Positions 4,093 through 59,009 of a DNA stretch of 64,000 nt are shown here, one piece after another. The position numbers and the translations under genes were made by a program. The notes under the pieces were generated by a model that saw nothing but the letters and a program-made list of their open reading frames with translations, was not told the DNA's origin and made no database searches. Every line of letters starts with the position of its first letter. Within the stretch, counting starts at the first letter, position 1. Source of the DNA: an uncultured Candidatus Saccharibacteria bacterium (GTDB lineage: Bacteria > Patescibacteriota > Minisyncoccia > UBA6257 > 2-01-FULL-56-20); NCBI GenBank assembly GCA_964484655.1, contig CAZAFA010000002.1, positions 24,130 through 88,129 on the forward strand, in the 5' to 3' direction.

Positions 4093-5295
4093 TCATCGCA
4101 GGAATTCCTGCAGCGCCGGATACCACGTCTCCGTGGCGCAGGCGAGGAGCGTCTCCTCGAACGCGGCGTCCGTGAGCACTGCCACGAGCGCCTCCGTCCG
4201 CTCCGTCGGGTCCTTCGTCCCCTGCAGCTCCTCGAGGAAGTTCTCGAAGCTGAAGCAGGCGAAGATGCGATCCCGCTCGCGCCGGACCATGCCGGTGATG
4301 AAGCGGAGCACGGCATCGTCCGTGCGCGCGTCATGCCGCTTCCCCGCGAGCGCCCAGCGGTTGCAGTACAGGTACTGCGTGCGTCCGGCCGCGGAGAGCA
4401 GGCCATCCAGCGTGGTGCCGAGCCTCTGCGCGAGCTTCTCGAGCTCGGCGACGCTCTCGGGCGACATCTTCCAGCGGTACAGCTGGAAGATCGTCGGCGA
4501 GAGGACGCCCATTCCGAGGAGCACGTACTCCCCGATCGTGTTCAGGAACGACGTCTTGAGCAGCTCCGTCCTCCCGCCGCAGTGCCGGAAGCGCTCGACG
4601 AAGCGCGCGAGAAACCGCGAGCTGAACGTCGGCGCGAACGCGCGGACCGCCTCGATGCGGCGGCAGGCGAGCACCAGGACCGGGACGGCGGCGTCAGGCC
4701 TCCGCGCGGCGAACAGGATGCGGAGCATCTGCGCCAGCGCGGCGACCGGCTCCCGCAGCTGGTCAGCCGCGGTCACCGCGCCTTCGATCCAGCGGCGGTC
4801 CTCGAGGAGCCCGCCGTAGTCCTTCTGCTGGAGCTCGAGGAGCCCCGTGAGGCGGTCGAGCTCGGCGCGCTGCGCATCCGGCTCGGCGAGCGCCTTCAGG
4901 AAATCCTGGAAGCGCACCTCGTCGGAGCGGTGCCCGCCCTCCTCGGCGTCGTACGAGAACGTGCCGCGCACGCTCTCCCCTGTCTGCAGGCGGAAGGCGT
5001 ACGAGGCGGCGAGCTGGTAGAGCGCCGCGTCGTCGGGCATGCAGAGCTTCCGGCTCTCGTCGGCGATGGCGGCATGAAGCGCGGCATCGTCGGCGAGCCC
5101 GGAAAGCTGCGCGGGATTGCCGAGGCACGCGAGCGCCTCCGCCACCGCTTCCGCGATGAATGTCTCCGGCGGATCCACTTCCTTGAAGAAGGCGGAGAGC
5201 CGGAGAGCGACGGTCTGGACCTGTTCCAGACGCAGTTCCAATCGTTGCTGTTTCGTCAGCGTCTGCTCGACGCTGCATCTGAGTGACAAGCTCAT
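4093..5295 (-). CDS. hypothetical protein (400 aa)
   Basis: Long ORF divergent from 5427-6293 across an AT-rich promoter region. No motif recognised. Confidence 0.5.
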   Translation of the reverse strand: MSLSLRCSVEQTLTKQQRLELRLEQVQTVALRLSAFFKEVDPPETFIAEAVAEALACLGNPAQLSGLADDAALHAAIADESRKLCMPDDAALYQLAASYAFRLQTGESVRGTFSYDAEEGGHRSDEVRFQDFLKALAEPDAQRAELDRLTGLLELQQKDYGGLLEDRRWIEGAVTAADQLREPVAALAQMLRILFAARRPDAAVPVLVLACRRIEAVRAFAPTFSSRFLARFVERFRHCGGRTELLKTSFLNTIGEYVLLGMGVLSPTIFQLYRWKMSPESVAELEKLAQRLGTTLDGLLSAAGRTQYLYCNRWALAGKRHDARTDDAVLRFITGMVRRERDRIFACFSFENFLEELQGTKDPTERTEALVAVLTDAAFEETLLACATETWYPALQEFLR

Positions 5296-5426
5296 AAGCG
5301 AAATCTCCTTATTACCTAGGTTTCAAATTACCTGGTCTCGATACCACGGATATTGCCAAATAGCAAGATAAATGCTATTATATTCGCAGCAATACCAATA
5401 TCTAAAGGAAAAGGAGAAAGAAATCA

Positions 5427-6293
5427 GTGGTAAAAAATCAATACAGGGAGGCTGCCACCTGGCAGCAGTTCAATCGCGTTCATGAGCTCAAGCTCAAGGC
5501 GTTCATGGTCCTCTTCGGCGCGTACATCGCCGTCATGACCGGGATGCTGGTCGCGCAGCACTACGGGTTCGTCCTGTGGGGCGGAAGGCTCGGCGCGCTG
5601 CTCAACCTGATCTTCGGGCTCGGCGGGCAGCTCGTCATGCTGTTCATCGCCATCGTCGCGTTCGACGCGCCGTACCGGCGCTGGCACGGGGAGCTCGCGA
5701 AGATCTTCGGATCGGTCGGGCGGCAGACGCGGCTGGGAGCCTTCGGCTTCTACCGCTTCATGTTCAACCCGCGTCCGGCGGACACGCTGGCGGCGATCCT
5801 CGACCAGAAGCTGGAGATTCAGGAGCTGGGCGAGGAACATGCGCGACTCGAACGCGAACGCGACGGCTGGAACCGCAAGCTCGAGATCGAGACGCTCAAG
5901 CTCCAGCTCGCCGGGCTGGACGGCAAGTTCCGTGAAGGATCATCCGAACAGCGGCGGCTCGAGCGCGCTCTCCGCAAGTGCGCCGACCCGGTAGCGCTCA
6001 GGCGGCTCCTCGAGGAGCTGACGAAGCTGGAACCGCATCGCGAGCTTCCCTCCGAAGCCCCGAACGGTCCCGACCGCATCGAGGAGCTCATCGCCACCTT
6101 CCGCGAGGAAGAGCGCGATGGCACCGACGAGGAAGCGACCCGGCTCTTCCATGCCGCGCTGCAGGAAGAGAGCCGCAAGGGCAAGCGGATGAAGCTCGTC
6201 GCGGCGATCGGCAAGCTGCGCGCTGCTAACCGGCGACGGAAGGAGCAGGAGGAGAAGGCCGCCTCGCGGCGGCACCGCAGAGCTGCGGAATAG
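5427..6293 (+). CDS. hypothetical membrane protein with charged coiled-coil C-terminal half
   Basis: GTG start preceded by AAAGGAGAAAG. Three predicted N-terminal TM helices, then a K/E/R-rich coiled region. Confidence 0.5.
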   Translation: MVKNQYREAATWQQFNRVHELKLKAFMVLFGAYIAVMTGMLVAQHYGFVLWGGRLGALLNLIFGLGGQLVMLFIAIVAFDAPYRRWHGELAKIFGSVGRQTRLGAFGFYRFMFNPRPADTLAAILDQKLEIQELGEEHARLERERDGWNRKLEIETLKLQLAGLDGKFREGSSEQRRLERALRKCADPVALRRLLEELTKLEPHRELPSEAPNGPDRIEELIATFREEERDGTDEEATRLFHAALQEESRKGKRMKLVAAIGKLRAANRRRKEQEEKAASRRHRRAAE

Positions 6294-6294
6294 G

Positions 6295-6318
6295 ATCAGG
6301 GCACCCTCGGGTGCCCTT
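6295..6318. terminator. rho-independent terminator (bidirectional)
   Basis: GGGCACCC-TCG-GGTGCCC followed by TTTTCGC, lying between convergent genes. Confidence 0.6.
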
Positions 6319-6322
6319 TTCG

Positions 6323-6820
6323 CTACCAGCTCTCGGGATGCGAGACCGTCGCGCCGTCGACGGCCGCGAGGTCGGCCAGCGGTATCGCGACGCGCTCGGA
6401 GAGGCGCGCTCCCCGCGCGTCGCGACCGGCTACCTGCGTCACGCTCCGGGGATAGTCCTTCCGGGCGAGCAGCGCGCGCAGCTCGTGGGCGGGCACCGTG
6501 AGCATGCTCTGGCTCTCAGGAGAACAGACGAACACGAGCTGCACGGACGCGGAGAGGCCGGCGCCCGGCATCCGTTCCGCGCCGTAGAGCTCGGCGACCT
6601 CGAAGCGCGCCTCGCGCGCGCCCGGCGAGACGACCGCGATCATGAACGGGATCTCCAGGAGGCGCCCCTCCTGCCGCACCGTCCAGAGGCCGTCCGCGCC
6701 TCCGCGGCGCTCCAGCGCGACCTTGCGGGCATCCGTCACGGAAACCGTATCCGGATGCTGCGCCAGGAGCGCGAGGACGCGATCCTCCCATGCCGTCGAC
6801 GAGAAGTCGGCCCGCTTCAC
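6323..6820 (-). CDS. hypothetical protein
   Basis: Shares the frame of the 6323..7126 track ORF. A GTG start overlaps the stop of the upstream DUF167 gene (GTGA). Confidence 0.4.
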   Translation of the reverse strand: MKRADFSSTAWEDRVLALLAQHPDTVSVTDARKVALERRGGADGLWTVRQEGRLLEIPFMIAVVSPGAREARFEVAELYGAERMPGAGLSASVQLVFVCSPESQSMLTVPAHELRALLARKDYPRSVTQVAGRDARGARLSERVAIPLADLAAVDGATVSHPESW

Positions 6821-30470: not shown

Positions 30471-31058
30471 ATGGATTCCTCCCGCATGCGCTCCCTCGCG
30501 CTCATCGTCCACTGGCTGCCGCTCGCGGCGGCGATCGCGCTCATGGGCGGCATGGCGATCGCCATGGCCCAGCAGGCGCTCCGCGCGCAGCTCAACGACC
30601 CGCAGATACAGATGGTCGCCGACGCGCAGGCGCTCCTCGAGAAGGGCGTCGCGCCCCAGCAGGTCGCGACCCCGACGACGCCCGTCCCGCTGGACGCGGC
30701 GCACAGCTTCGCCCCCTTCCTCGCCGTCTACGACGCCCAGGGAACGCCGCTCGCCTGGAGCGGCACCATCAACGGGCAGGCGCCGAAGCCGCCCACGGAC
30801 GTGTTCGAGCGGGCCAAGGAGGCGGGCCGCAACCGCGTGACCTGGGAACCGGAGGAGAAGGTCCGCATCGCGCTGGTAGCGCGCCCGGTGAACAACGGGG
30901 AGCGCTACGTGGCCGCCGGCCGGAACATGGCCGAGGTGGAGGACCGGATCTGGCTGATGACCCGCATCGGGCTCTCCTCCGTGCTGCTGATCCTCCTGAT
31001 CACGCTCGTCCTCGAGGGCTTCGCGGACTGGTGGCGGCGGAAGGCCGTTGCCGCTTAA
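30471..31058 (+). CDS. hypothetical membrane protein
   Basis: N-terminal and C-terminal TM helices flank a soluble domain. Confidence 0.4.
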   Translation: MDSSRMRSLALIVHWLPLAAAIALMGGMAIAMAQQALRAQLNDPQIQMVADAQALLEKGVAPQQVATPTTPVPLDAAHSFAPFLAVYDAQGTPLAWSGTINGQAPKPPTDVFERAKEAGRNRVTWEPEEKVRIALVARPVNNGERYVAAGRNMAEVEDRIWLMTRIGLSSVLLILLITLVLEGFADWWRRKAVAA

Positions 31059-31073
31059 CGAACGAACGGAAGG

Positions 31074-31095
31074 GCCGCGCGAGTCGCGGCTTTTT
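31074..31095 (+). terminator. rho-independent terminator
   Basis: GCCGCGC-GAGT-CGCGGC followed by TTTTTCG. Confidence 0.6.
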
Positions 31096-31097
31096 CG

Positions 31098-31125
31098 TTG
31101 ACTATTTCTCAGAAACCCTTATAAG
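31098..31125 (+). promoter_or_regulatory. candidate promoter TTGACT-N16-TATAAG
   Basis: Lies in the AT-rich leader ahead of the sigma-factor gene. Confidence 0.3.
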
Positions 31126-31172
31126 TTTGCTTACGCTTCTTGATAAAAACGTAATAAGGAGAACGAAGGCCC

Positions 31173-31943
31173 ATGCTGGACAGTCTGAACGGCGCCTCCG
31201 GCCTGCTGGAGGGAACTGAGACGACGGATCCGCCGAAACACGACTATGCACTCGCGAAACGCGCGGGCATGGGCGACGAATCGGCGTTCACGACGCTCTA
31301 TACGCGATACCGTTCGCGCACGCTGAACGTGGTTTCACGGATCGTGGAGCCCGCGGACAGCGAGGACGTGAACCAGGAGGTATGGATCCAGGTATTCAGG
31401 AAGATCGGCTCCTTCAAGGGAGATTCGGCCTTCACGACCTGGCTGCACCGCCTGTCGGTCAACACGGCGCTCATGCACCTGCGGAAACGCACGGTGAAGC
31501 TTGAGCATGTCACCGACGACGAGGAATTCCCCGTCGTCGTGGTCCCGGGAACGGAACGTCCGTCCCGGATGAGGATCGTGGATAAGATCGCGATCGACGA
31601 GGCCTGGGAGTATCTCCCCGCGGGATACAAGCAGGTCCTCTACTACCATGACGTCCTCGGCTACGAGCACGAGGAGGTGGCGGTCATCATGGGATGCTCG
31701 GTAGGGACCTCTAAGTCCCAGCTGCACAAGGCACGCCTCAAGATGGGACGGATACTGCGCCGGAAGAAGCTGAACGCGCACGATTCGAACAACGTCATCG
31801 AGGCCCGATGGAACGCCAGGCTCGGCATAGAGCTGCCGGCGATCAGCATCGGGGAATGGAGGCGCGGCATCGAGGATGCGGCGGAGGAAGAGGCTGAGAC
31901 GGTCGAGGACGACTTCGACATAGGGGAGGAATGGAGCTTATGA
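31173..31943 (+). CDS. sigma-70/ECF-type sigma factor with acidic C-terminal extension
   Basis: Region 2 (DVNQEVWIQVFRKIGSF...FTTWLHRLSVNTA) and region 4 (YHDVLGYEHEEVAVIMGCSVGTSKSQLHKARLKM), plus ~60 extra residues. Confidence 0.75.
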   Translation: MLDSLNGASGLLEGTETTDPPKHDYALAKRAGMGDESAFTTLYTRYRSRTLNVVSRIVEPADSEDVNQEVWIQVFRKIGSFKGDSAFTTWLHRLSVNTALMHLRKRTVKLEHVTDDEEFPVVVVPGTERPSRMRIVDKIAIDEAWEYLPAGYKQVLYYHDVLGYEHEEVAVIMGCSVGTSKSQLHKARLKMGRILRRKKLNAHDSNNVIEARWNARLGIELPAISIGEWRRGIEDAAEEEAETVEDDFDIGEEWSL

Positions 31944-32857
31944 GAGATGCTCTCGAAAAAACGGGAACGTCGCTCCCGGTCGCGACGAACGGCACGCAGC
32001 AGGAGGAGAAGGTCATCTGGGTCAGGCGCGACCGCCTGGCTCCCGACCCCCGCCAGCCGCGCAACTGGTTCGACGAAGCCAAGCTCGAGGAACTCGCCAA
32101 GAGCATCGGAGCCGTCGGACAGCGGGTGGCCATCATCGTGGTCGCCCACCCCGAGGAGCCTGATCGCTACCTCATTGTCGACGGCGAACGCCGCTGGCGC
32201 GCCTGCGAGATCGCGGGCGTCATGATGATGAAGGCGGTCGTCTCCCAGGAGACGGACGAGCGCGAGCTCTTCAAGCAGTCCGCGATCGCGAACTTCTCGC
32301 GGGAGGGTCACACCACCCTCGAGATCATGCACGCGATCGCCCGCATCAAGCAGGACTTCCCGGATCTCAAGAATCACGAGATCGCGGCGATGTTCGGCAA
32401 GTCCCTCGGCTGGGTGCAGAACCACCTTGCGCTGCTGCGGCTCCCGCGGGAGGTCCAGGACCTGATGCATCCCTCGCGACCGAAGGAACAGCGGCTGGTG
32501 TTTTCCGTTGCCCTGCAGCTCGTCCCGCTCTCCGAGCAGGATCAGCTGCGATTCGCCCGCGAGTACTGCTCCGGCAGGAGGAGCGCGAAAAGCACCGCGG
32601 TGGACATCACGCGCCACCGGCTGACCAGCGGCGGCGTCACGGTGAAGAAGCCGAAGAAGTCGCATGCGCGGCAGAAGATCACCAACTTCACCAAGCGCAT
32701 CCAGGAGGACACGGAGCTCATCGCCCTGATGGATCCGGAGACCTTCCAAGTCGCCTTCGCGGGACGGAACAGGCAGGAGGTCAAGGAAGCCCTCCGCAAC
32801 CTCGAGGATGCGGAGCGGAACATCGCCAAGATCAAACGCTTGCTCGGGAAGTCATAA
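31931..32857 (+). CDS. ParB/Srx-like N-terminal domain protein with HTH (orphan ParB-like)
   Basis: LIVDGERRWRACEIAG is a ParB box II-like motif. Overlaps the sigma gene by 13 nt. Confidence 0.75.
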   Translation: MELMRDALEKTGTSLPVATNGTQQEEKVIWVRRDRLAPDPRQPRNWFDEAKLEELAKSIGAVGQRVAIIVVAHPEEPDRYLIVDGERRWRACEIAGVMMMKAVVSQETDERELFKQSAIANFSREGHTTLEIMHAIARIKQDFPDLKNHEIAAMFGKSLGWVQNHLALLRLPREVQDLMHPSRPKEQRLVFSVALQLVPLSEQDQLRFAREYCSGRRSAKSTAVDITRHRLTSGGVTVKKPKKSHARQKITNFTKRIQEDTELIALMDPETFQVAFAGRNRQEVKEALRNLEDAERNIAKIKRLLGKS

Positions 32858-32884
32858 AAAGCGGGACCTTCGGGTCCCGCTTTT
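32857..32884. terminator. terminator hairpin
   Basis: AAAAGCGGGACC-TTC-GGGTCCCGCTTTT. Confidence 0.7.
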
Positions 32885-32939
32885 GCATGCCAGTCGCTAG
32901 CTGCTCCGCTTCCCGTGCCTTCGCTTGAGACGTAGCTGG

Positions 32940-35285
32940 AGATGGCATGAGATTTCCTACTTTAACCCTTACAACTCCCTAATCAAACTAATCAAGTCCT
33001 AATACAGCTCTAAACCATCTAATTGCACCAATGCCATGATGATTAATAATTTCTAGCGTTGTGGAATCGGCAACGCGGTTATGGACACGATTATTTCTGT
33101 ATTCAATAAGTTCCACAAAACTCTTTTCAAGCCTGGGCTTATGCCTAAATTTTGGCTTGAACGCATCCCAATTCTGAGCTTTTAAGATAATGTCTTTGTA
33201 GTGGTTGAGGGACAAAAAGCGAACTAAGGCTTCCCCTTGCTGAAACTCTTCCTGAGTTTTAAATGGATACCTTTCCAATTCAGAATCCACCATACCGGCA
33301 ACTTGCTCCTTGATATACTGAGGAATCACTCCGTCACGATTCCAGTAATTAGCACCATACTTTGTCAGCAGCTCAGTATGAATGAGGTCCCTAAGTGCGC
33401 TTTCGATTTCTTCAATGGACTGAATGCCGATCTCTTCAACTTCATTCGAATCCTCTTCTCCCGTTTCATCATTAGAAAGAATCTCTGGATTAAAATCAGG
33501 CTTTACCTTATTGATCTCTAGACAAAGCATTGCAGCAACCTTTACATAACCAGCTTCACTCGATGCACTTTTCATCTCTTTAAGTTGTTCATCATCAAGG
33601 CTAGTCAGATGCGCAGTAAGAGGCTTTGTATATTCGGTAAGCTTAAGTCGATAAATTTTCAAATCCTGCACGATGTTTCGATCACTCCGACGAAAATCTA
33701 AAAGTATATGTTTGAAAACTAATAAGAGGACCGCTATACCGAAATTAGAACGTACGAAGCCTTTTTCGCCATTATTCCAATCCTTTAAACATTCATCCTT
33801 AATTGCTTGGAAAAATATATCCAGCCTCTCAACTGCGAAATCAACGGTATCTTCTTCTGTCTCATGGAAAAGCTCGCCAGGCCTCCTTCCGGCTTTTAGA
33901 AAATTTCCCTTCTTTAAACGATTGCAAAGAGTATAAAGACTGATATTTGACTGCGTGTCTTTCTCATTAACACTCGGAACATAAATATGATTTTCCAATG
34001 CGCCATTCCTCTTTGCGTTGAGCCCTTTACCGACACGGCTGATTAAGCAAAGAAGCCGATTTTTATCTTCTTTAGAGCCATAGTAGATATCGCTATACAA
34101 ATCCCATAGCAAATTTGCATCGACCTTCTTCTGGTGCTCATTGATATCGATGAATAACTTACCCTGACGATCTGCAGGAAGTCCCTCGTAGGCAAAAACA
34201 GGAATCAATGCAGTCGTTCCCTCTGGGATGCCTGCATAACTCAATAAGCGATGCTGACCATCAATAATCCACGCAGCTTTATAAGAACGAGGGAAAGTAA
34301 GATCGCCATATTCAATTCCTTCAAGAGTAGAAATTACTTTAAAACGAGGCGGCTTACTGAAATTGACGATAACATTATTAGCAAAGCTGCCTCTATGATT
34401 TTGAATATATTCCCTGATATCGGCGACACGTCCTTTATTCACCATCCTTTGATATGGATTTTCAGAACCATTTAGTAGATTGCCCTGATTGAGCTTTCTA
34501 TGATGAACATAACTGATCTTAATCAGATCCTTCGGATAGCAAACAAATGAATAGCCTGTTAGTCCATTTGGGTCAGTTACTCTTATAGCGGGGACATGTG
34601 GAGGATAATCTGGCACCTCCTCATCAAAGAAAGTCTCAGCGCAAACTTGATAAAAAGCATCTTTCCCAAGGCGGCCGAATAAATCTTCAAAGTATGAAAT
34701 ATAAAACGAGTTCCAAATAGAAACTCTCTTTTCAGAAGCTAAAACTAAATCAGACTCTGAAGGGTCAATGTTATTGAGAGCCAAGATGTATTTAACCGAT
34801 GTACTCTCTCCAAAAAGTTTCTGGAAAACAGGAGTTAGTTTTCGCGAATAATCATTAATTTCCCGGATATCCTGAGCAACTGTTCTCCGGGATCGCTCCT
34901 CAGCATGCTTACATTCGATGACAAATATAGTCTTCCCAAAGCGGGCAATTACATCGATTTGCTTACTCTCGCCATTGTTATCAAGCAAGACCCTAGATGC
35001 TTGACTATCCCGATTTAAGTTGTGGGCACCGAGACTCCACATCAAATTCCAAATCCTATCCTCAAAAACTTCTGACGCGGCTTTATCGGAGTTTTTAATT
35101 TTTCTCCTTTCTATTTCTGTATTAAAAAAAGGATCGGACTCATCAACACGTAATAAAATATTTTGAATCCGCTCGAGTGGAGTTTCCGAAACCGAATCCT
35201 TCTTGGGCATAGAAATATTGGATCACGTAAACACCTATCTAACAAGACGGCGAAATATCAATCCTTACCCAGAATTGGGCGTTTG
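32940..35285. other. low-GC (~37%) genomic island abutting tRNA-Ser(GCT)
   Basis: Abrupt compositional shift from ~70% GC with AT-rich codon usage. Carries a single gene. No integrase or direct repeat found. Confidence 0.55.
32988..35210 (-). CDS. multidomain defence-like protein: PD-(D/E)xK-like N-terminus, DGQHR domain (DndB/ParB-Srx-like), HEPN-like C-terminus
   Basis: Motifs read directly: IDVIARFGKTIFVIECKH (D...ExK), WIIDGQHRLLSYAG (DGQHR), ELIEYRNNRVHNRV (Rx4H HEPN-like). 740 aa. Confidence 0.8.
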   Translation of the reverse strand: MPKKDSVSETPLERIQNILLRVDESDPFFNTEIERRKIKNSDKAASEVFEDRIWNLMWSLGAHNLNRDSQASRVLLDNNGESKQIDVIARFGKTIFVIECKHAEERSRRTVAQDIREINDYSRKLTPVFQKLFGESTSVKYILALNNIDPSESDLVLASEKRVSIWNSFYISYFEDLFGRLGKDAFYQVCAETFFDEEVPDYPPHVPAIRVTDPNGLTGYSFVCYPKDLIKISYVHHRKLNQGNLLNGSENPYQRMVNKGRVADIREYIQNHRGSFANNVIVNFSKPPRFKVISTLEGIEYGDLTFPRSYKAAWIIDGQHRLLSYAGIPEGTTALIPVFAYEGLPADRQGKLFIDINEHQKKVDANLLWDLYSDIYYGSKEDKNRLLCLISRVGKGLNAKRNGALENHIYVPSVNEKDTQSNISLYTLCNRLKKGNFLKAGRRPGELFHETEEDTVDFAVERLDIFFQAIKDECLKDWNNGEKGFVRSNFGIAVLLLVFKHILLDFRRSDRNIVQDLKIYRLKLTEYTKPLTAHLTSLDDEQLKEMKSASSEAGYVKVAAMLCLEINKVKPDFNPEILSNDETGEEDSNEVEEIGIQSIEEIESALRDLIHTELLTKYGANYWNRDGVIPQYIKEQVAGMVDSELERYPFKTQEEFQQGEALVRFLSLNHYKDIILKAQNWDAFKPKFRHKPRLEKSFVELIEYRNNRVHNRVADSTTLEIINHHGIGAIRWFRAVLGLD

Positions 35286-35372
35286 CGGAGAGGCAGGGAT
35301 TCGAACCCTGGGAGGGGTTCCCCCCTCAACATCTTAGCAGGATGCTCCATTCGACCGCTCTGGCACCTCTCC
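35286..35372 (-). tRNA. tRNA-Ser (anticodon GCT)
   Basis: Reverse complement GGAGAGG...GCATC-CTGCTAA-GATGT..., long variable arm GAGGGGGGAACCCCTCCC, T arm CAGGG-TTCGAAT-CCCTG. Confidence 0.8.
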
Positions 35373-35448
35373 CGTTTTGCAGGGCAACAGTAGCGGTTCC
35401 CGACTAGGATTTCCAGGTCCGTTCCTAGGGAGACGGTGCTATGATTAC

Positions 35449-36024
35449 CCCATGAACACCACCCCCTTCTGGAAGCGCCCCTGGGTCATCGGCCTCGCCG
35501 TCCTGATCCTCATCGCCATCTGGCTCGTCAGCGCGTACAACGGCTTCGTCGCCAAGTCCGCGGCCGTAGAGGCCCAGTGGGCCCAGGTCGAGACCCAGTA
35601 TCAGCGCCGCTTCGACCTCATCCCGAACCTCGTGAGCTCCGTCCAGGGCATCATGGAGCAGGAGCAGGACGTCTTTAAGAGCCTCGCGGACGCCCGCACC
35701 CGGTACTCGGGCGCCGGCACCGTGGACGAGAAGGCGCAGGCCGCCACCCAGGTGGACAGCGCGCTCGCCCGCCTGCTCGTCGTGGTGGAGAACTACCCGC
35801 AGCTCCGCTCCTCCGAGTCCGTGCAGCAGCTCATGGACCAGCTCGAGGGCACCGAAAACCGGATCAGCGTGGAGCGCAACCGCTTCAACGAGAACGTCCA
35901 GGCATACAACGTCGCCGTCACGCGTTTCCCGGGCAACATCAGCTCGCGCATCTTCGGCTTCGCCCCGCACGCGTACTACCGCGCCGCCGAGGGCGCGGAC
36001 GTCGTGCCGCAGGTAGAGCTCTAA
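35449..36024 (+). CDS. LemA-family protein
   Basis: N-terminal TM, then YNGFVAKSAAVEAQWAQVETQYQRRFDLIPNLV, the LemA signature. Confidence 0.8.
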   Translation, partial: PMNTTPFWKRPWVIGLAVLILIAIWLVSAYNGFVAKSAAVEAQWAQVETQYQRRFDLIPNLVSSVQGIMEQEQDVFKSLADARTRYSGAGTVDEKAQAATQVDSALARLLVVVENYPQLRSSESVQQLMDQLEGTENRISVERNRFNENVQAYNVAVTRFPGNISSRIFGFAPHAYYRAAEGADVVPQVEL

Positions 36025-52751: not shown

Positions 52752-52813
52752 AGAATCAGACAAAGGGCGAGCAAGAGCTCGCCCTTTGTCTGCTCAACGG
52801 AACCGATCTACTG

Positions 52814-52898
52814 CGGAGAGGAAGGGATTCGAACCCTTGATACCTTGCGGTACACAGTCTTTCCAGGACTGCCGTTTCAACCACTCACGCACCTCTCC
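52814..52898 (-). tRNA. tRNA-Ser (anticodon GGA)
   Basis: Reverse complement GGAGAGG...CAGTC-CTGGAAA-GACTG..., long variable arm, T arm AAGGG-TTCGAAT-CCCTT. Confidence 0.8.
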
Positions 52899-54375: not shown

Positions 54376-54404
54376 TTGCAATTCAGGATATTTTGTGGTA
54401 TGGT
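54376..54404 (+). promoter_or_regulatory. near-consensus sigma-70 promoter TTGCAA-N17-(TGg)TATGGT
   Basis: Read directly. It has an extended -10, and AGGAGA with the ATG lies ~45 nt downstream. Confidence 0.45.
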
Positions 54405-54456
54405 GATGCCAAGCTTTTTTGAAAAAAATTAAAGGTAATAAGGAGATTTTAGAATT

Positions 54457-55155
54457 ATGGATATCGAGAAGAGGACCGCGATGGCGGTCTCGCCCAAGAA
54501 CGAGCTGACTCTGGCTTCGCCGGAGCTGATTCAAGGCGCGAAAGCGCTCAACTACAGACCGAAGACGTTGCTGGACAGGATCCAGCAGCATCTTCCCAAT
54601 CCGGTCGAGGCTCGGATCTACCTGAGCGTCGGTCCGAAGATGAAGCATCGTCCCGCGACGTTCGCGATCATCCTGCGCGAGCTCATGGGCTCCCAGGAGA
54701 TCAACGAGCAGGACCTCGATCCCGTCAAAGGGACGAGCGTCGCTCGCGTCGAATGGCTGCTGGACGCGCTCGAGACCGTGCTGGCGCTGATCCTCAGGGC
54801 ACCGGACGACTACAACGGTCTCCGGCTCGGAGCTCAGTCGGCTGCACGGCTCTGGATCGCTTACGGCGATAACGCGGATACGTTCATCGCTTCGGTTATG
54901 GACAACATTCCCGAGATCGCCCACCAGCTCGGTTACACCGGGAGGAAGCCGTATCGGAGCCGCCTCGGCGACGACGATTACGAGTGGTATCCCGAGGGCA
55001 AGGTGGCGAAGCATGCCTTCGGCATGTTCAACCACGTGATATTCCCCTACTGTCGCGATCACGGCGTTCCCTACTTCCTGGAGTTCCTCGAGTTCTTCCA
55101 GGTTGGAGAGATCGCCCGCTCGATCGAGGAGTGGGAAGACATGGAGGACGAATAG
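54457..55155 (+). CDS. hypothetical protein (232 aa), first gene of a lower-GC two-gene operon
   Basis: RBS TAAGGAGA. Acidic C-terminus. No known motif. Confidence 0.5.
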   Translation: MDIEKRTAMAVSPKNELTLASPELIQGAKALNYRPKTLLDRIQQHLPNPVEARIYLSVGPKMKHRPATFAIILRELMGSQEINEQDLDPVKGTSVARVEWLLDALETVLALILRAPDDYNGLRLGAQSAARLWIAYGDNADTFIASVMDNIPEIAHQLGYTGRKPYRSRLGDDDYEWYPEGKVAKHAFGMFNHVIFPYCRDHGVPYFLEFLEFFQVGEIARSIEEWEDMEDE

Positions 55156-55156
55156 C

Positions 55157-56512
55157 ATGGCGATATTCGATCGCACTGACCTGCTGCGCACCATCAAGGG
55201 GGCGCAGCAGAACCCGTTAAGGACAATCGGCTTCAGTGCGCAGCTCCTGCGGCTCAACCTCACTGAGGAAGAGCTCTGGAAATACGCCAAGCAAGCCGCC
55301 AAGCAGCTGGTCGCCATCATCCATCCGGATCAGGCGGACAGCGAGGAGCGCGAAGCGAGCATCGCCATGCGCGACGCTTTCGAAGCGCTCAAGGACTTCT
55401 CGGCATTCCAGGAAGCGCTCGCCGAGCTCCGCAAGGAGCACAGCGAGGAACGCAGCCAGGAGAACGCGAAGAAGCGTGCAGTCCGCCAGGGCGACTCACT
55501 CGTCCAGGAAGCGGTACGCCAGCGCGAGCAGGCGATCGCCGACGCGAACGAGCACAAGCGGCAGGTGGAGCGGCTCAAGAACCAGCTCTCCCGACTGACC
55601 GGCACCGACACGGTGGTGGTCAGGAACCGCAAGAGCAAGGAGCGGAACGGCTTCGAATGGATCAAGATGCCGCGTCAGCTGACGCAAGCCATCGCGATCC
55701 GGTTCGAGGTCAAGACCTGGAAGGGCAAGGTAGGCGAACCGGGGATGCTGCAAGGCGTCATCGGCACCTACAACCGGAAACGGGAGCGGGCACTCCGCAC
55801 GATGGCGACGAAGCGCAAGGAGGCGAGCAAGACTCGCGAGCTCCGCCCCGGCGAGCTGCAGCTCAATCCCGACCGCGACTCGGGTCACGTCGAGGAGGCG
55901 CACCACAAGATCGAGAAATTCGGTTACGCCTCGCGCACGCTGGCTGAGCTGGTCGCCCAGGCGATCGAACAGCCGATCCCGGTGCTCAACTGGGGTATGG
56001 CGAACGCTCTCGACGAGTACGGCATCGTGCGCGGCACGGTACGGCATACCAAGGTCCCTGACCTTGCCCAGGTCGTATCGGCGAGCGCTTTCGATCCGGA
56101 GGACTTCGAGAAGCACTACCGTCGCGCGTTCTCCGACCTCGTCGCCTGGCTCGATCGCCGCGTCACCCGGGTCTCCGAGATCCATGTCTTTCCCGAGCTC
56201 GTCGACCTCCGCGGCGGATGGTTCAACGGCATCGATTCCAAGATCGTGCTGGGGAGCGTCTTCCTGGACGAGATGAAGCTCAGCCTGGAGAAAGGGTATC
56301 TGAGCGCGGGAACCTATCCCGAGGACCTGGAATACCCGGTCGTGTGCGAAGGGGCGCTCGTCGCGACGTGCATGCCGACCGAGATCGGCGTCACGGGCGA
56401 TATCGCGCGCTTGCGCGCGGACTCCTTCCATACGGAACTCTTCAATAAGGCAGGACGCTTGAAGGAAGGCCCGCGTATCATCGCGACGCACTACCTTCTC
56501 GAACTGATGTAA
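55157..56512 (+). CDS. J-domain-like protein (HPD motif) with coiled-coil and unknown C-terminal domain
   Basis: ATG is 1 nt after the upstream TAG. EEELWKYAKQAAKQLVAIIHPDQADSEEREASIAMRDAFEALKD parallels DnaJ helix II-HPD-helix III. Confidence 0.5.
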   Translation: MAIFDRTDLLRTIKGAQQNPLRTIGFSAQLLRLNLTEEELWKYAKQAAKQLVAIIHPDQADSEEREASIAMRDAFEALKDFSAFQEALAELRKEHSEERSQENAKKRAVRQGDSLVQEAVRQREQAIADANEHKRQVERLKNQLSRLTGTDTVVVRNRKSKERNGFEWIKMPRQLTQAIAIRFEVKTWKGKVGEPGMLQGVIGTYNRKRERALRTMATKRKEASKTRELRPGELQLNPDRDSGHVEEAHHKIEKFGYASRTLAELVAQAIEQPIPVLNWGMANALDEYGIVRGTVRHTKVPDLAQVVSASAFDPEDFEKHYRRAFSDLVAWLDRRVTRVSEIHVFPELVDLRGGWFNGIDSKIVLGSVFLDEMKLSLEKGYLSAGTYPEDLEYPVVCEGALVATCMPTEIGVTGDIARLRADSFHTELFNKAGRLKEGPRIIATHYLLELM

Positions 56513-56517
56513 ATGGA

Positions 56518-56547
56518 ACGGGCGCTCTCACGAGCGCCCGTCTTTTA
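56518..56547. terminator. bidirectional terminator between the J-domain operon and groEL
   Basis: ACGGGCGCTC-TCACG-AGCGCCCGT followed by CTTTTA. Confidence 0.65.
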
Positions 56548-56560
56548 TTCCTGCATAAGG

Positions 56561-58490
<1,930 letters not shown>

Positions 58491-58521
58491 GGTGTGTGAT
58501 ACGCGTTTGTGCGGACGGATA

Positions 58522-58548
58522 TTAGCAATCCCAAGAGGAGATTGCCAA
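58522..58548. promoter_or_regulatory. CIRCE-like inverted repeat (putative HrcA operator) upstream of groES
   Basis: TTAGCAATC-N9-GATTGCCAA versus CIRCE consensus TTAGCACTC-N9-GAGTGCTAA (15/18 positions). Lies 32-58 nt upstream of the groES start. Confidence 0.5.
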
Positions 58549-58617
58549 GACTTGCCAAGGACGCAGGAGATCTGTTTAGTTACGCCGGACCTAATTTAAA
58601 AAACAGGAGAAGGCTGA

Positions 58618-59009
58618 TGAGTAGGAAGAAGGAGAACCTTTTCATTTTCTTAGGCATGGCGGTGGCGCTCGGAATCATATTCTTCGTCGTAGCACAGATC
58701 GTCCCCAGCAACGCCCGCTCGACATCCCTGCACCAGGGAAGCGCGGTAGTGCGCGGCACGGTGACTAAGATCCCCATTGAGACGGAGTCCGGCGTCTCCA
58801 TGCTGGAGTTCGGAAGCGGCGGCAGGACGTATCGCGCCCGCCTGCCGAATGAGTGCGGGGATGACATCGCGGTCGGCACCGAGATCGAGGTCTGGGTGGA
58901 CACCTGGCGATCGGACGGTATCGCGATAACCGAATCGGAGCCTCCCGTGTACGCGCAGGAGGCGTTTGTGAAATGCCGTAAGGTATGGAAGCTGACGCAG
59001 AACCGCTGA
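58618..59009 (+). CDS. hypothetical membrane-anchored protein
   Basis: RBS AACAGGAGAAGG. N-terminal TM LFIFLGMAVALGIIFFVVAQI. Confidence 0.4.

Follow-up and report, generated by a model that had tools for sequence, protein, structure and literature searches.

In J-domain proteins (JDPs) of class C, the J-domain is joined to client-targeting domains of diverse kinds, many being domains of unknown function (DUFs), in 2,712 architectures, and such a protein is expected to bring Hsp70 to a single, specific client (PMC10410713). A protein that appears to belong to this class is encoded, next to a smaller protein, in a 64,000-nucleotide stretch of DNA (the window; all positions are counted from its first nucleotide) on contig CAZAFA010000002.1 of assembly GCA_964484655.1, from an uncultured Candidatus Saccharibacteria bacterium placed by GTDB in the Patescibacteriota. 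There, two open reading frames (ORFs), ORF1 (54457-55155, plus strand; 232 amino acids) and ORF2 (55157-56512, plus strand; 451 amino acids plus stop codon), form a cassette between htpX and groEL, and with moderate confidence we consider ORF2 to be a divergent class-C J-domain co-chaperone and ORF1 its dedicated partner, the two making up a self-contained Patescibacteria module. An earlier note on this DNA had offered two functions, a co-chaperone/adaptor pair or a mobile module exploiting host DnaK, of which the former is favoured here; the size it gave for ORF1 stands, whereas its 452 residues for ORF2 include the stop codon.

Like HscB/Hsc20 of class C, ORF2 has an N-terminal HPD-bearing J-domain followed by a non-DnaJ region that would serve client targeting (PMC10410713), and like other proteins of this class it lacks a glycine/phenylalanine-rich (G/F) region, a zinc finger and the DnaJ C-terminal domain. 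Outside the J-domain, however, HscB/Hsc20 and ORF2 share neither sequence nor fold similarity; ORF2 has in addition an NPLxxIG motif, a 72-residue helix and an unmatched alpha/beta domain of about 275 residues, and its family differs further by a variable HPD proline, an obligate upstream partner gene and a distribution that is, as far as seen, restricted to Patescibacteria. In its genetic arrangement the cassette resembles AtcJ-AtcABC of Shewanella oneidensis, where a specialised JDP, AtcJ, shares an operon with proteins of unknown function that bind it and that are linked to DnaK by its J-domain (PMC6715715). However, AtcJ is a short JDP, consisting of a J-domain and a 21-residue tail, and is encoded by the first of four genes, whereas ORF2 is 451 residues long and encoded by the second of two; a likeness of ORF1 to AtcA, AtcB or AtcC was not detected, no direct comparison having been made. 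The CbpA-CbpM pair of Escherichia coli is likewise encoded by a two-gene operon, in which a J-domain co-chaperone is accompanied by a small, dedicated protein that acts on it. CbpA, though, is a class-B Hsp40 with the DnaJ C-terminal domains that ORF2 lacks, and CbpM comprises about 100 residues and is encoded downstream, whereas ORF1 comprises 232 and is encoded upstream; that ORF1 is without any Pfam match is an indirect test against the CbpM-type family. Zuotin, the J-protein of the ribosome-associated complex, is eukaryotic and ribosome-bound, its likeness to ORF2 is confined to the J-domain region, and its partner Ssz1 is Hsp70-like, which ORF1 is not.

The J-domain of ORF2 becomes apparent when the protein is considered together with its family. 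A HMMER search of 1.84 billion representatives retrieved 168 relatives of ORF2 at E <= 0.001, mostly 350-500 residues long, which have the N-terminal ~130 residues in common with the consensus NPLxxIGLSxxILxLGLsxDELYxxxxxxARxLxxxxHPDR...AFxxLKDRxxFxxALxEFR. When a profile of 70 full-length family members (A3) was compared to the sequences of the PDB, nearly all of the best ~40 matches were J-domains, led by that of E. coli DnaJ (1bqz, E = 1.8e-5), followed by 1xbl, 5nro, 1hdj and others, and including those of human Hsp40, Sis1, Ydj1 and CbpA. In line with this, comparison of A3 by hhalign with canonical J-domain sequences gave a probability of 94.6% (E = 6.8e-8) for an alignment that covers LG-x22-HPD and helix III, the spacing from LG to HPD being that of DnaJ. 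Individually, six of the 70 members match the Pfam model PF00226 (DnaJ) at E <= 0.01 (best 3e-5), DnaJ models were the most frequent matches in a search of NCBIfam, and family members have already been named accordingly by automatic annotation, one as 'J domain-containing protein [Patescibacteria group bacterium]' (P0138, MBA3733266.1) and another, by its source, as 'curved DNA-binding protein CbpA' (P0115).

An AlphaFold2 (AF2) model of ORF2 built from a 110-sequence alignment (predicted local distance difference test score, pLDDT, 91.9; predicted template modelling score, pTM, 0.74) shows a J-domain fold, in which helices II and III form a hairpin around the loop and are part of a small bundle of helices. 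The core comprises residues ~28-92 (55238-55432, plus strand), with helix I at residues 28-33, helix II at 37-54, the HPD tripeptide at 56-58 and helix III at 62-78, after which helix IV begins. The tripeptide H56-P57-D58, encoded by CAT CCG GAT (55322-55330, plus strand), lies in the helix-HPD-helix segment KQLVAIIHPDQADSEEREASIAMRDAFEALKD (residues 49-80), from which a J-domain had been proposed earlier. Within the family alignment H56 is present in 110 of 110 sequences, D58 in 108 (98%) and P57 in 76, and the basic face of helix II (K42, K45 and K49 in ORF2) recurs, with lysine or arginine in 69% of sequences at position 45 and in 86% at position 49, as well as in 66% at position 59 directly after HPD. 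Since the profile, hhalign and member matches, the AF2 model and the conserved H/D and basic positions agree, the proposed J-domain is, as judged from sequence comparison and modelling, established at the family level, albeit as a divergent one. Directly N-terminal to it lies the NPLxxIG motif (NPLRTIGFS in ORF2, residues 19-27; 55211-55237, plus strand), which is nearly invariant (N19 in 108, P20 in 107, L21 in 109 and G25 in 105 of 110 sequences) and the most conserved element after His56.

In the AF2 model helix IV runs on as one helix to residue 152, which gives a continuous, coiled-coil-like stalk of 72 residues (81-152; 55397-55612, plus strand) where, in a single heptad register, 62% of the a/d positions are hydrophobic as compared to 31% overall. 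A C-terminal alpha/beta domain (residues 177-451; 55685-56509, plus strand) without recognisable relative and without a match in the PDB completes the protein, and the long coiled region and unrecognised C-terminal domain described in the earlier note are thus both borne out. The conserved positions of this domain are mostly structural and form no obvious catalytic set, and therefore no toxin or nuclease domain is evident. Neither PF01556 nor PF00684 matched ORF2 or 70 relatives, and in place of a DnaJ_C beta-sandwich the model has the long helix together with an alpha/beta domain of another kind. Because a G/F region, a zinc finger (CXXCXGXG) and a DnaJ_C domain are lacking, ORF2 is by sequence and predicted structure a class-C (type III) protein and not a class-A or class-B Hsp40.

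ORF1 was said to contain no recognisable motif, and indeed it matched nothing in Pfam, NCBIfam or PADLOC and had but one negligible match in PHROGs, while a profile of ten ORF1 sequences found no match in the PDB; it appears to resemble no known protein. ORF1 carries the conserved motifs SPELxxGA, KPxTLL, HRPxTF and AxRLxxxYGxxAxxFI, and its C-terminal tail is acidic. Over the last of these motifs, two of ten ORF1 homologues gave weak, sub-threshold matches to HHH_RecD2 (E = 0.0011 and 0.029), which constitute an unconfirmed lead. ORF1 is unrelated to ORF2, and the reading that it arose from ORF2 by duplication and divergence was rejected (hhalign probability 0.2%). One NCBI gene call (P0003) begins at Met9 (224 amino acids).

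The pairing of the two genes is conserved. In 11 of 11 independent loci of relatives with available DNA an ORF1 homologue lies directly upstream of the J-protein gene. A lack of joint conservation in other genomes had been named as grounds for refuting the earlier interpretation, but the two genes occur together in every relative's locus examined. These homologues were recognised by sequence identity (L001 44%, L002 87%, L005 58%, L011 41%), by hhalign (L012 99.2%, L099 99.6%) or by hidden Markov model with E-values from 4e-25 to 5e-9 (L013/L014, L096, L097, L098), while on the P0011 contig the 215-residue ORF upstream of the family gene is known by position and length alone. At the junction of ORF1 and ORF2 the genes overlap or are separated by at most one nucleotide in nine of ten loci, and in L099 they overlap by four nucleotides. 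The flanking genes, in turn, are housekeeping genes that differ from locus to locus, with ribosomal proteins, tRNA synthetases, DnaB/RecR, ScpAB, FtsH and pyruvate kinase among their products, and a third conserved gene beside the pair was not found across the relatives' loci; ORF1 and ORF2 are a self-contained two-gene unit. The divergence of ORF1 is correlated with that of ORF2 (Pearson 0.69, Spearman 0.36), as calculated over 45 locus pairs with shared ancestry. On the P0011 contig (JGI 3300071358), a 421-residue protein with a Pfam DnaJ match is encoded at 5197-6462 on the minus strand, opposite in orientation to the family cassette and at a distance of about 1 kb from it; possibly this is a J-protein paralogue in the vicinity of the pair.

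Word-indexed homology searches found two proteins each for ORF1 and ORF2, and pattern scans with a two-sequence alignment retrieved nothing from GTDB genomes, JGI metagenomes or IMG/VR, while a scan with a six-sequence alignment (A5) retrieved one metagenome locus, L096. The distribution of the conserved pair is Patescibacterial as far as seen. Pfam and NCBIfam contain no model dedicated to the family, beyond the J-domain it has no solved relative, and full-text searches of the literature on J-domains with Patescibacteria or the Candidate Phyla Radiation (CPR) and with anti-phage defence brought up no description of it.

In the window, the tight coupling of the two ORFs noted earlier is confirmed: they are translationally coupled on the same strand, and their junction GAATAGcATGGCG reads TAG-c-ATG with a one-nucleotide gap. 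Upstream lies a promoter-like element read from the sequence (54376-54404, plus strand), comprising a -35-like TTGCAA (54376-54381), a 17-nucleotide spacer with the TGg of an extended -10, and a -10-like TATGGT (54399-54404). The element is thus present, but its description as near-consensus was generous, as it agrees with the consensus at eight of 12 positions plus the extended -10 TG and was not called by a consensus scan. A ribosome-binding site AAGGAG (54440-54445, plus strand) lies 11 nucleotides 5' of the ORF1 ATG, and both it and the position and TGTGGTAT core of the promoter are kept in the 87-90% identical relative L002. Between the convergent ORF2 and groEL genes, an intrinsic terminator (56518-56551, plus strand) was called on the plus strand by a hairpin/terminator scan, with a hairpin at 56518-56541 (10-bp stem including eight G-C pairs, 4-nucleotide loop) and a T-run; as no T-run is present on the minus-strand side, the bidirectional action that had been stated is no more than plausible.

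The G + C content is 60.4% for ORF1 and 63.2% for ORF2 compared to a window mean of 66.2%, and at third codon positions (GC3) it is 0.815 and 0.843 versus 0.91-0.98 in eight neighbouring genes (htpX, DUF805, groEL, groES, trxB, dsbA, NlpC and LOG). The cassette ranks 32nd lowest among 310 windows of the same size, and the atypical composition pointed out earlier is therefore genuine yet moderate. A CIRCE-like operator (controlling inverted repeat of chaperone expression) was correctly located upstream of groES (58522-58548), where the inverted repeat TTAGCAATC-N9-GATTGCCAA has three mismatches to the consensus, with 0 such copies expected by chance; a promoter-like minus-strand site overlaps with it. 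As this is the sole copy in the window and the cassette itself has none, the idea that the groES operator controls the cassette was rejected.

The surroundings of the cassette had been taken as an argument for a role in proteostasis. The GroEL of the window shares no more than 74% identity with species representatives, and among its 80 best matches those with a named lineage are nearly all metagenome-assembled genomes of Patescibacteria (Paceibacterota/Parcubacteria), which places the window in a high-GC member of this group. The neighbourhood of groEL was compared in these 80 relatives. Many have the genes dsbA-trxB-groES-groEL, a variable interval of 0.5-3.5 kb and then lemA-htpX on one strand, and this synteny is present in relatives without the cassette, which fills the variable groEL-htpX gap of the window on the strand opposite to that synteny. 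ORF1 or ORF2 was found within 6 kb of groEL in none of the 80 relatives' loci. Since the cassette is absent there, since the synteny exists without it and since elsewhere it adjoins unrelated genes, the proteostasis argument fails, and these surroundings are a coincidence of insertion site and no evidence of function. In many Paceibacterota lemA follows groEL and adjoins htpX on its upstream side, and the cassette takes up roughly this expected position of lemA; the LemA-like gene of the window is located at 35377-36024 (plus strand), about 18 kb from htpX.

That the J-domain of ORF2 acts on Hsp70 has to be weighed against several observations that speak to the contrary. Taken alone, ORF2 scores 14.6 bits against PF00226 (E = 0.036, residues 45-80), which is below the cutoff of 27.8, and the N-terminus of P0002, a 30% identical relative, is sub-threshold as well (E = 0.039). 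Among 151 members the triad is HPD in 104, HED in 16, HSD in 11, HTD in nine and HDD and HRD in one each, while in nine no triad was picked up by the pattern; the proline is substituted in ~30% of members. In E. coli DnaJ this proline is essential. Among ~280,000 JDPs surveyed, HPD variants are rare, the sole notable one being HPE at ~1% (PMC10410713). Furthermore, neither the window nor the relatives' loci that were retrieved contain Hsp70 or GrpE motifs, and therefore no genomic link to Hsp70 is seen and a linkage of the cassette to dnaK or grpE was rejected. Finally, the ORF2 homologue of L002 (JGI 3300072967) has an in-frame TAG (1464-1466, CAG to TAG) directly after the HPD, the frame being otherwise intact; whether it reflects an error of sequencing, variation within the population or a nonsense allele, it suggests that the gene may be dispensable. 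The N-terminus might accordingly be a J-like domain without co-chaperone activity, a structural or interaction module in an ORF1-ORF2 coiled-coil scaffold unrelated to DnaK; Pam16/Tim16 and ARC6 are J-like proteins. Apart from the substituted proline, the sub-threshold Pfam score and the lack of dnaK linkage, this would fit with the family-specific NPLxxIG motif outranking the canonical elements in conservation, and with a Foldseek search in which the full-length ORF2 model found nothing significant and J-domains were not retrieved. However, the invariant H56, the almost invariant D58, the basic helix II and the R/K following HPD are Hsp70-contacting features that have been kept, whereas J-like domains that have lost their function usually lose H and D too, and ORF2 of the window itself carries the canonical HPD; we therefore regard an inactive domain as unlikely. 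Weak matches of the N-termini of ORF2 and P0002 to Pfam PF00512 (E = 0.08 and 0.023, residues 19-57), which also count against a J-domain, would make the His-bearing hairpin a HisKA/DHp-like dimerisation and phosphotransfer domain and ORF2 a degenerate signalling protein. These matches are sub-threshold, however, neither a HATPase nor a receiver domain is present, and the PDB search by the family profile, dominated by J-domains and without a histidine kinase, together with the AF2 model, in which the histidine lies in the inter-helix loop and not on a helix, effectively refutes this reading, to which we attach almost no credence.

The other function offered in the earlier note, a mobile module, would make the pair a horizontally moving accessory element, either defence- or toxin-antitoxin-like or a phage-derived hijacker of DnaK, that came to lie in the variable spot beside groEL; phage RB43 encodes such a hijacker of host DnaK, Rki. 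A GC3 below that of the neighbours, the position on the opposite strand in the groEL-(lemA)-htpX gap that is without the cassette in 80 relatives, a genomic context that differs in every lineage, the patchy occurrence and the possible nonsense allele in the near relative L002 would all be in keeping with such mobility. The same holds for a weak integrase-SAM fragment, a 99-residue ORF with a weak Phage_int_SAM_4 match that precedes the ORF1 homologue by about 300 bp in L013 (6723-7022) and L014 (2077-2376), which is the only mobility-related feature seen beside any copy of the cassette. In the window, by contrast, there is no integrase or transposase at the cassette, and flanking repeats as signs of insertion were rejected, as direct and inverted matches were short and at chance level, a repeat of the tRNA-Ser(gga) 3' end not having been sought. 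Nor do mobile elements contain recognisable relatives: tblastn searches of 50,697 phage records and of 72,556 plasmid records gave no match, the two-sequence pattern scan found none among IMG/VR contigs, and BFVD gave no significant fold match. In PADLOC-DB 2.0 there was no match for ORF1 and weak ones for ORF2 (E >= 0.0026), and matches in PHROGs were weak as well (E >= 0.11); both concern mostly the helical region and no characterised defence or phage function, respectively. Given also that the cassette is always found among housekeeping genes and that the ORF2 C-terminal region has no evident toxin or nuclease domain, the mobile module is not upheld, and we judge it improbable.

Some further features of the window may be recorded. 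A tRNA-Ser(gga) gene (52813-52898, minus strand) lies ~1.5 kb from the cassette, past DUF805 and htpX. The interval between trxB and groES, otherwise conserved, contains on the opposite strand an ORF with a length of up to 166 residues (58509-59009, plus strand), the G + C content (57.5%) and GC3 (0.73) of which are both below those of the cassette; its start is probably an internal Met ahead of the hydrophobic segment LFIFLGMAVALGIIFFVVAQ, and it is possibly a second insertion specific to the lineage. A strong low-GC island at 31000-35400, falling to ~40% in a genome of 66% G + C, adjoins a tRNA-Ser(gct) gene (35285-35372) and contains a DndB/DGQHR-like ORF of 740 residues (32988-35210, minus strand) with the DGQHR motif AAWIIDGQHRLL and, upstream on the plus strand, a sigma-70-like ORF (31173-31943) and a ParB-like ORF (31931-32857). 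This island at a tRNA gene looks horizontally acquired and is possibly defence-related.

Returning to the co-chaperone with its dedicated partner, the following mode of action can be envisaged. Translational coupling would yield ORF1 and ORF2 in a fixed proportion, and the two would form a complex able to bind a specific client or site via ORF1, via the C-terminal alpha/beta domain of ORF2 or via both, with the 72-residue helix acting as a stalk or dimerisation element. The J-domain, with its basic helix II, HPD loop and helix III, might then dock on ATP-bound DnaK and trigger ATP hydrolysis, upon which DnaK would clamp the client and remodel, assemble or disassemble it. We infer that ORF1 and ORF2 interact physically, that the J-domain would recruit DnaK and stimulate its ATPase, and that a specific client exists; ORF1 itself might serve as an adaptor, might be the client, or might modulate the J-domain in the manner of CbpM.

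A more far-reaching version, doubtful in our view, sees in the pair a Patescibacteria-specific machine for targeting Hsp70 that is built from two new folds, those of ORF1 and of the ORF2 C-terminal domain, with non-canonical regulation of the J-domain or engagement of Hsp70, and that serves a process specific to these ultra-small episymbionts. In such a machine the NPLxxIG motif and the tolerated H-x-D variants would reflect this non-canonical regulation or engagement, and the process might, by analogy to TopJ, the J-protein of the Mycoplasma terminal organelle, be the assembly or turnover of attachment or surface structures.

In practical terms, the label 'class-C J-domain co-chaperone plus partner' can be attached to no fewer than 168 clusters of 'hypothetical' proteins (E <= 0.001) as well as to the proteins encoded directly before them, and two candidate new protein families are defined, one by ORF1 and the other by the C-terminal domain of ORF2. 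With an invariant His, a near-invariant Asp, a proline that varies in ~30% of members and an extra N-terminal motif, the family also constitutes a natural experiment, and this variation of the J-domain could inform on how Hsp70 is engaged or gated. Finally, the genomes of Patescibacteria are tiny and have few accessory functions, and a conserved module that appears to redirect Hsp70 in such genomes would therefore indicate a lineage-specific and as yet uncharacterised process.

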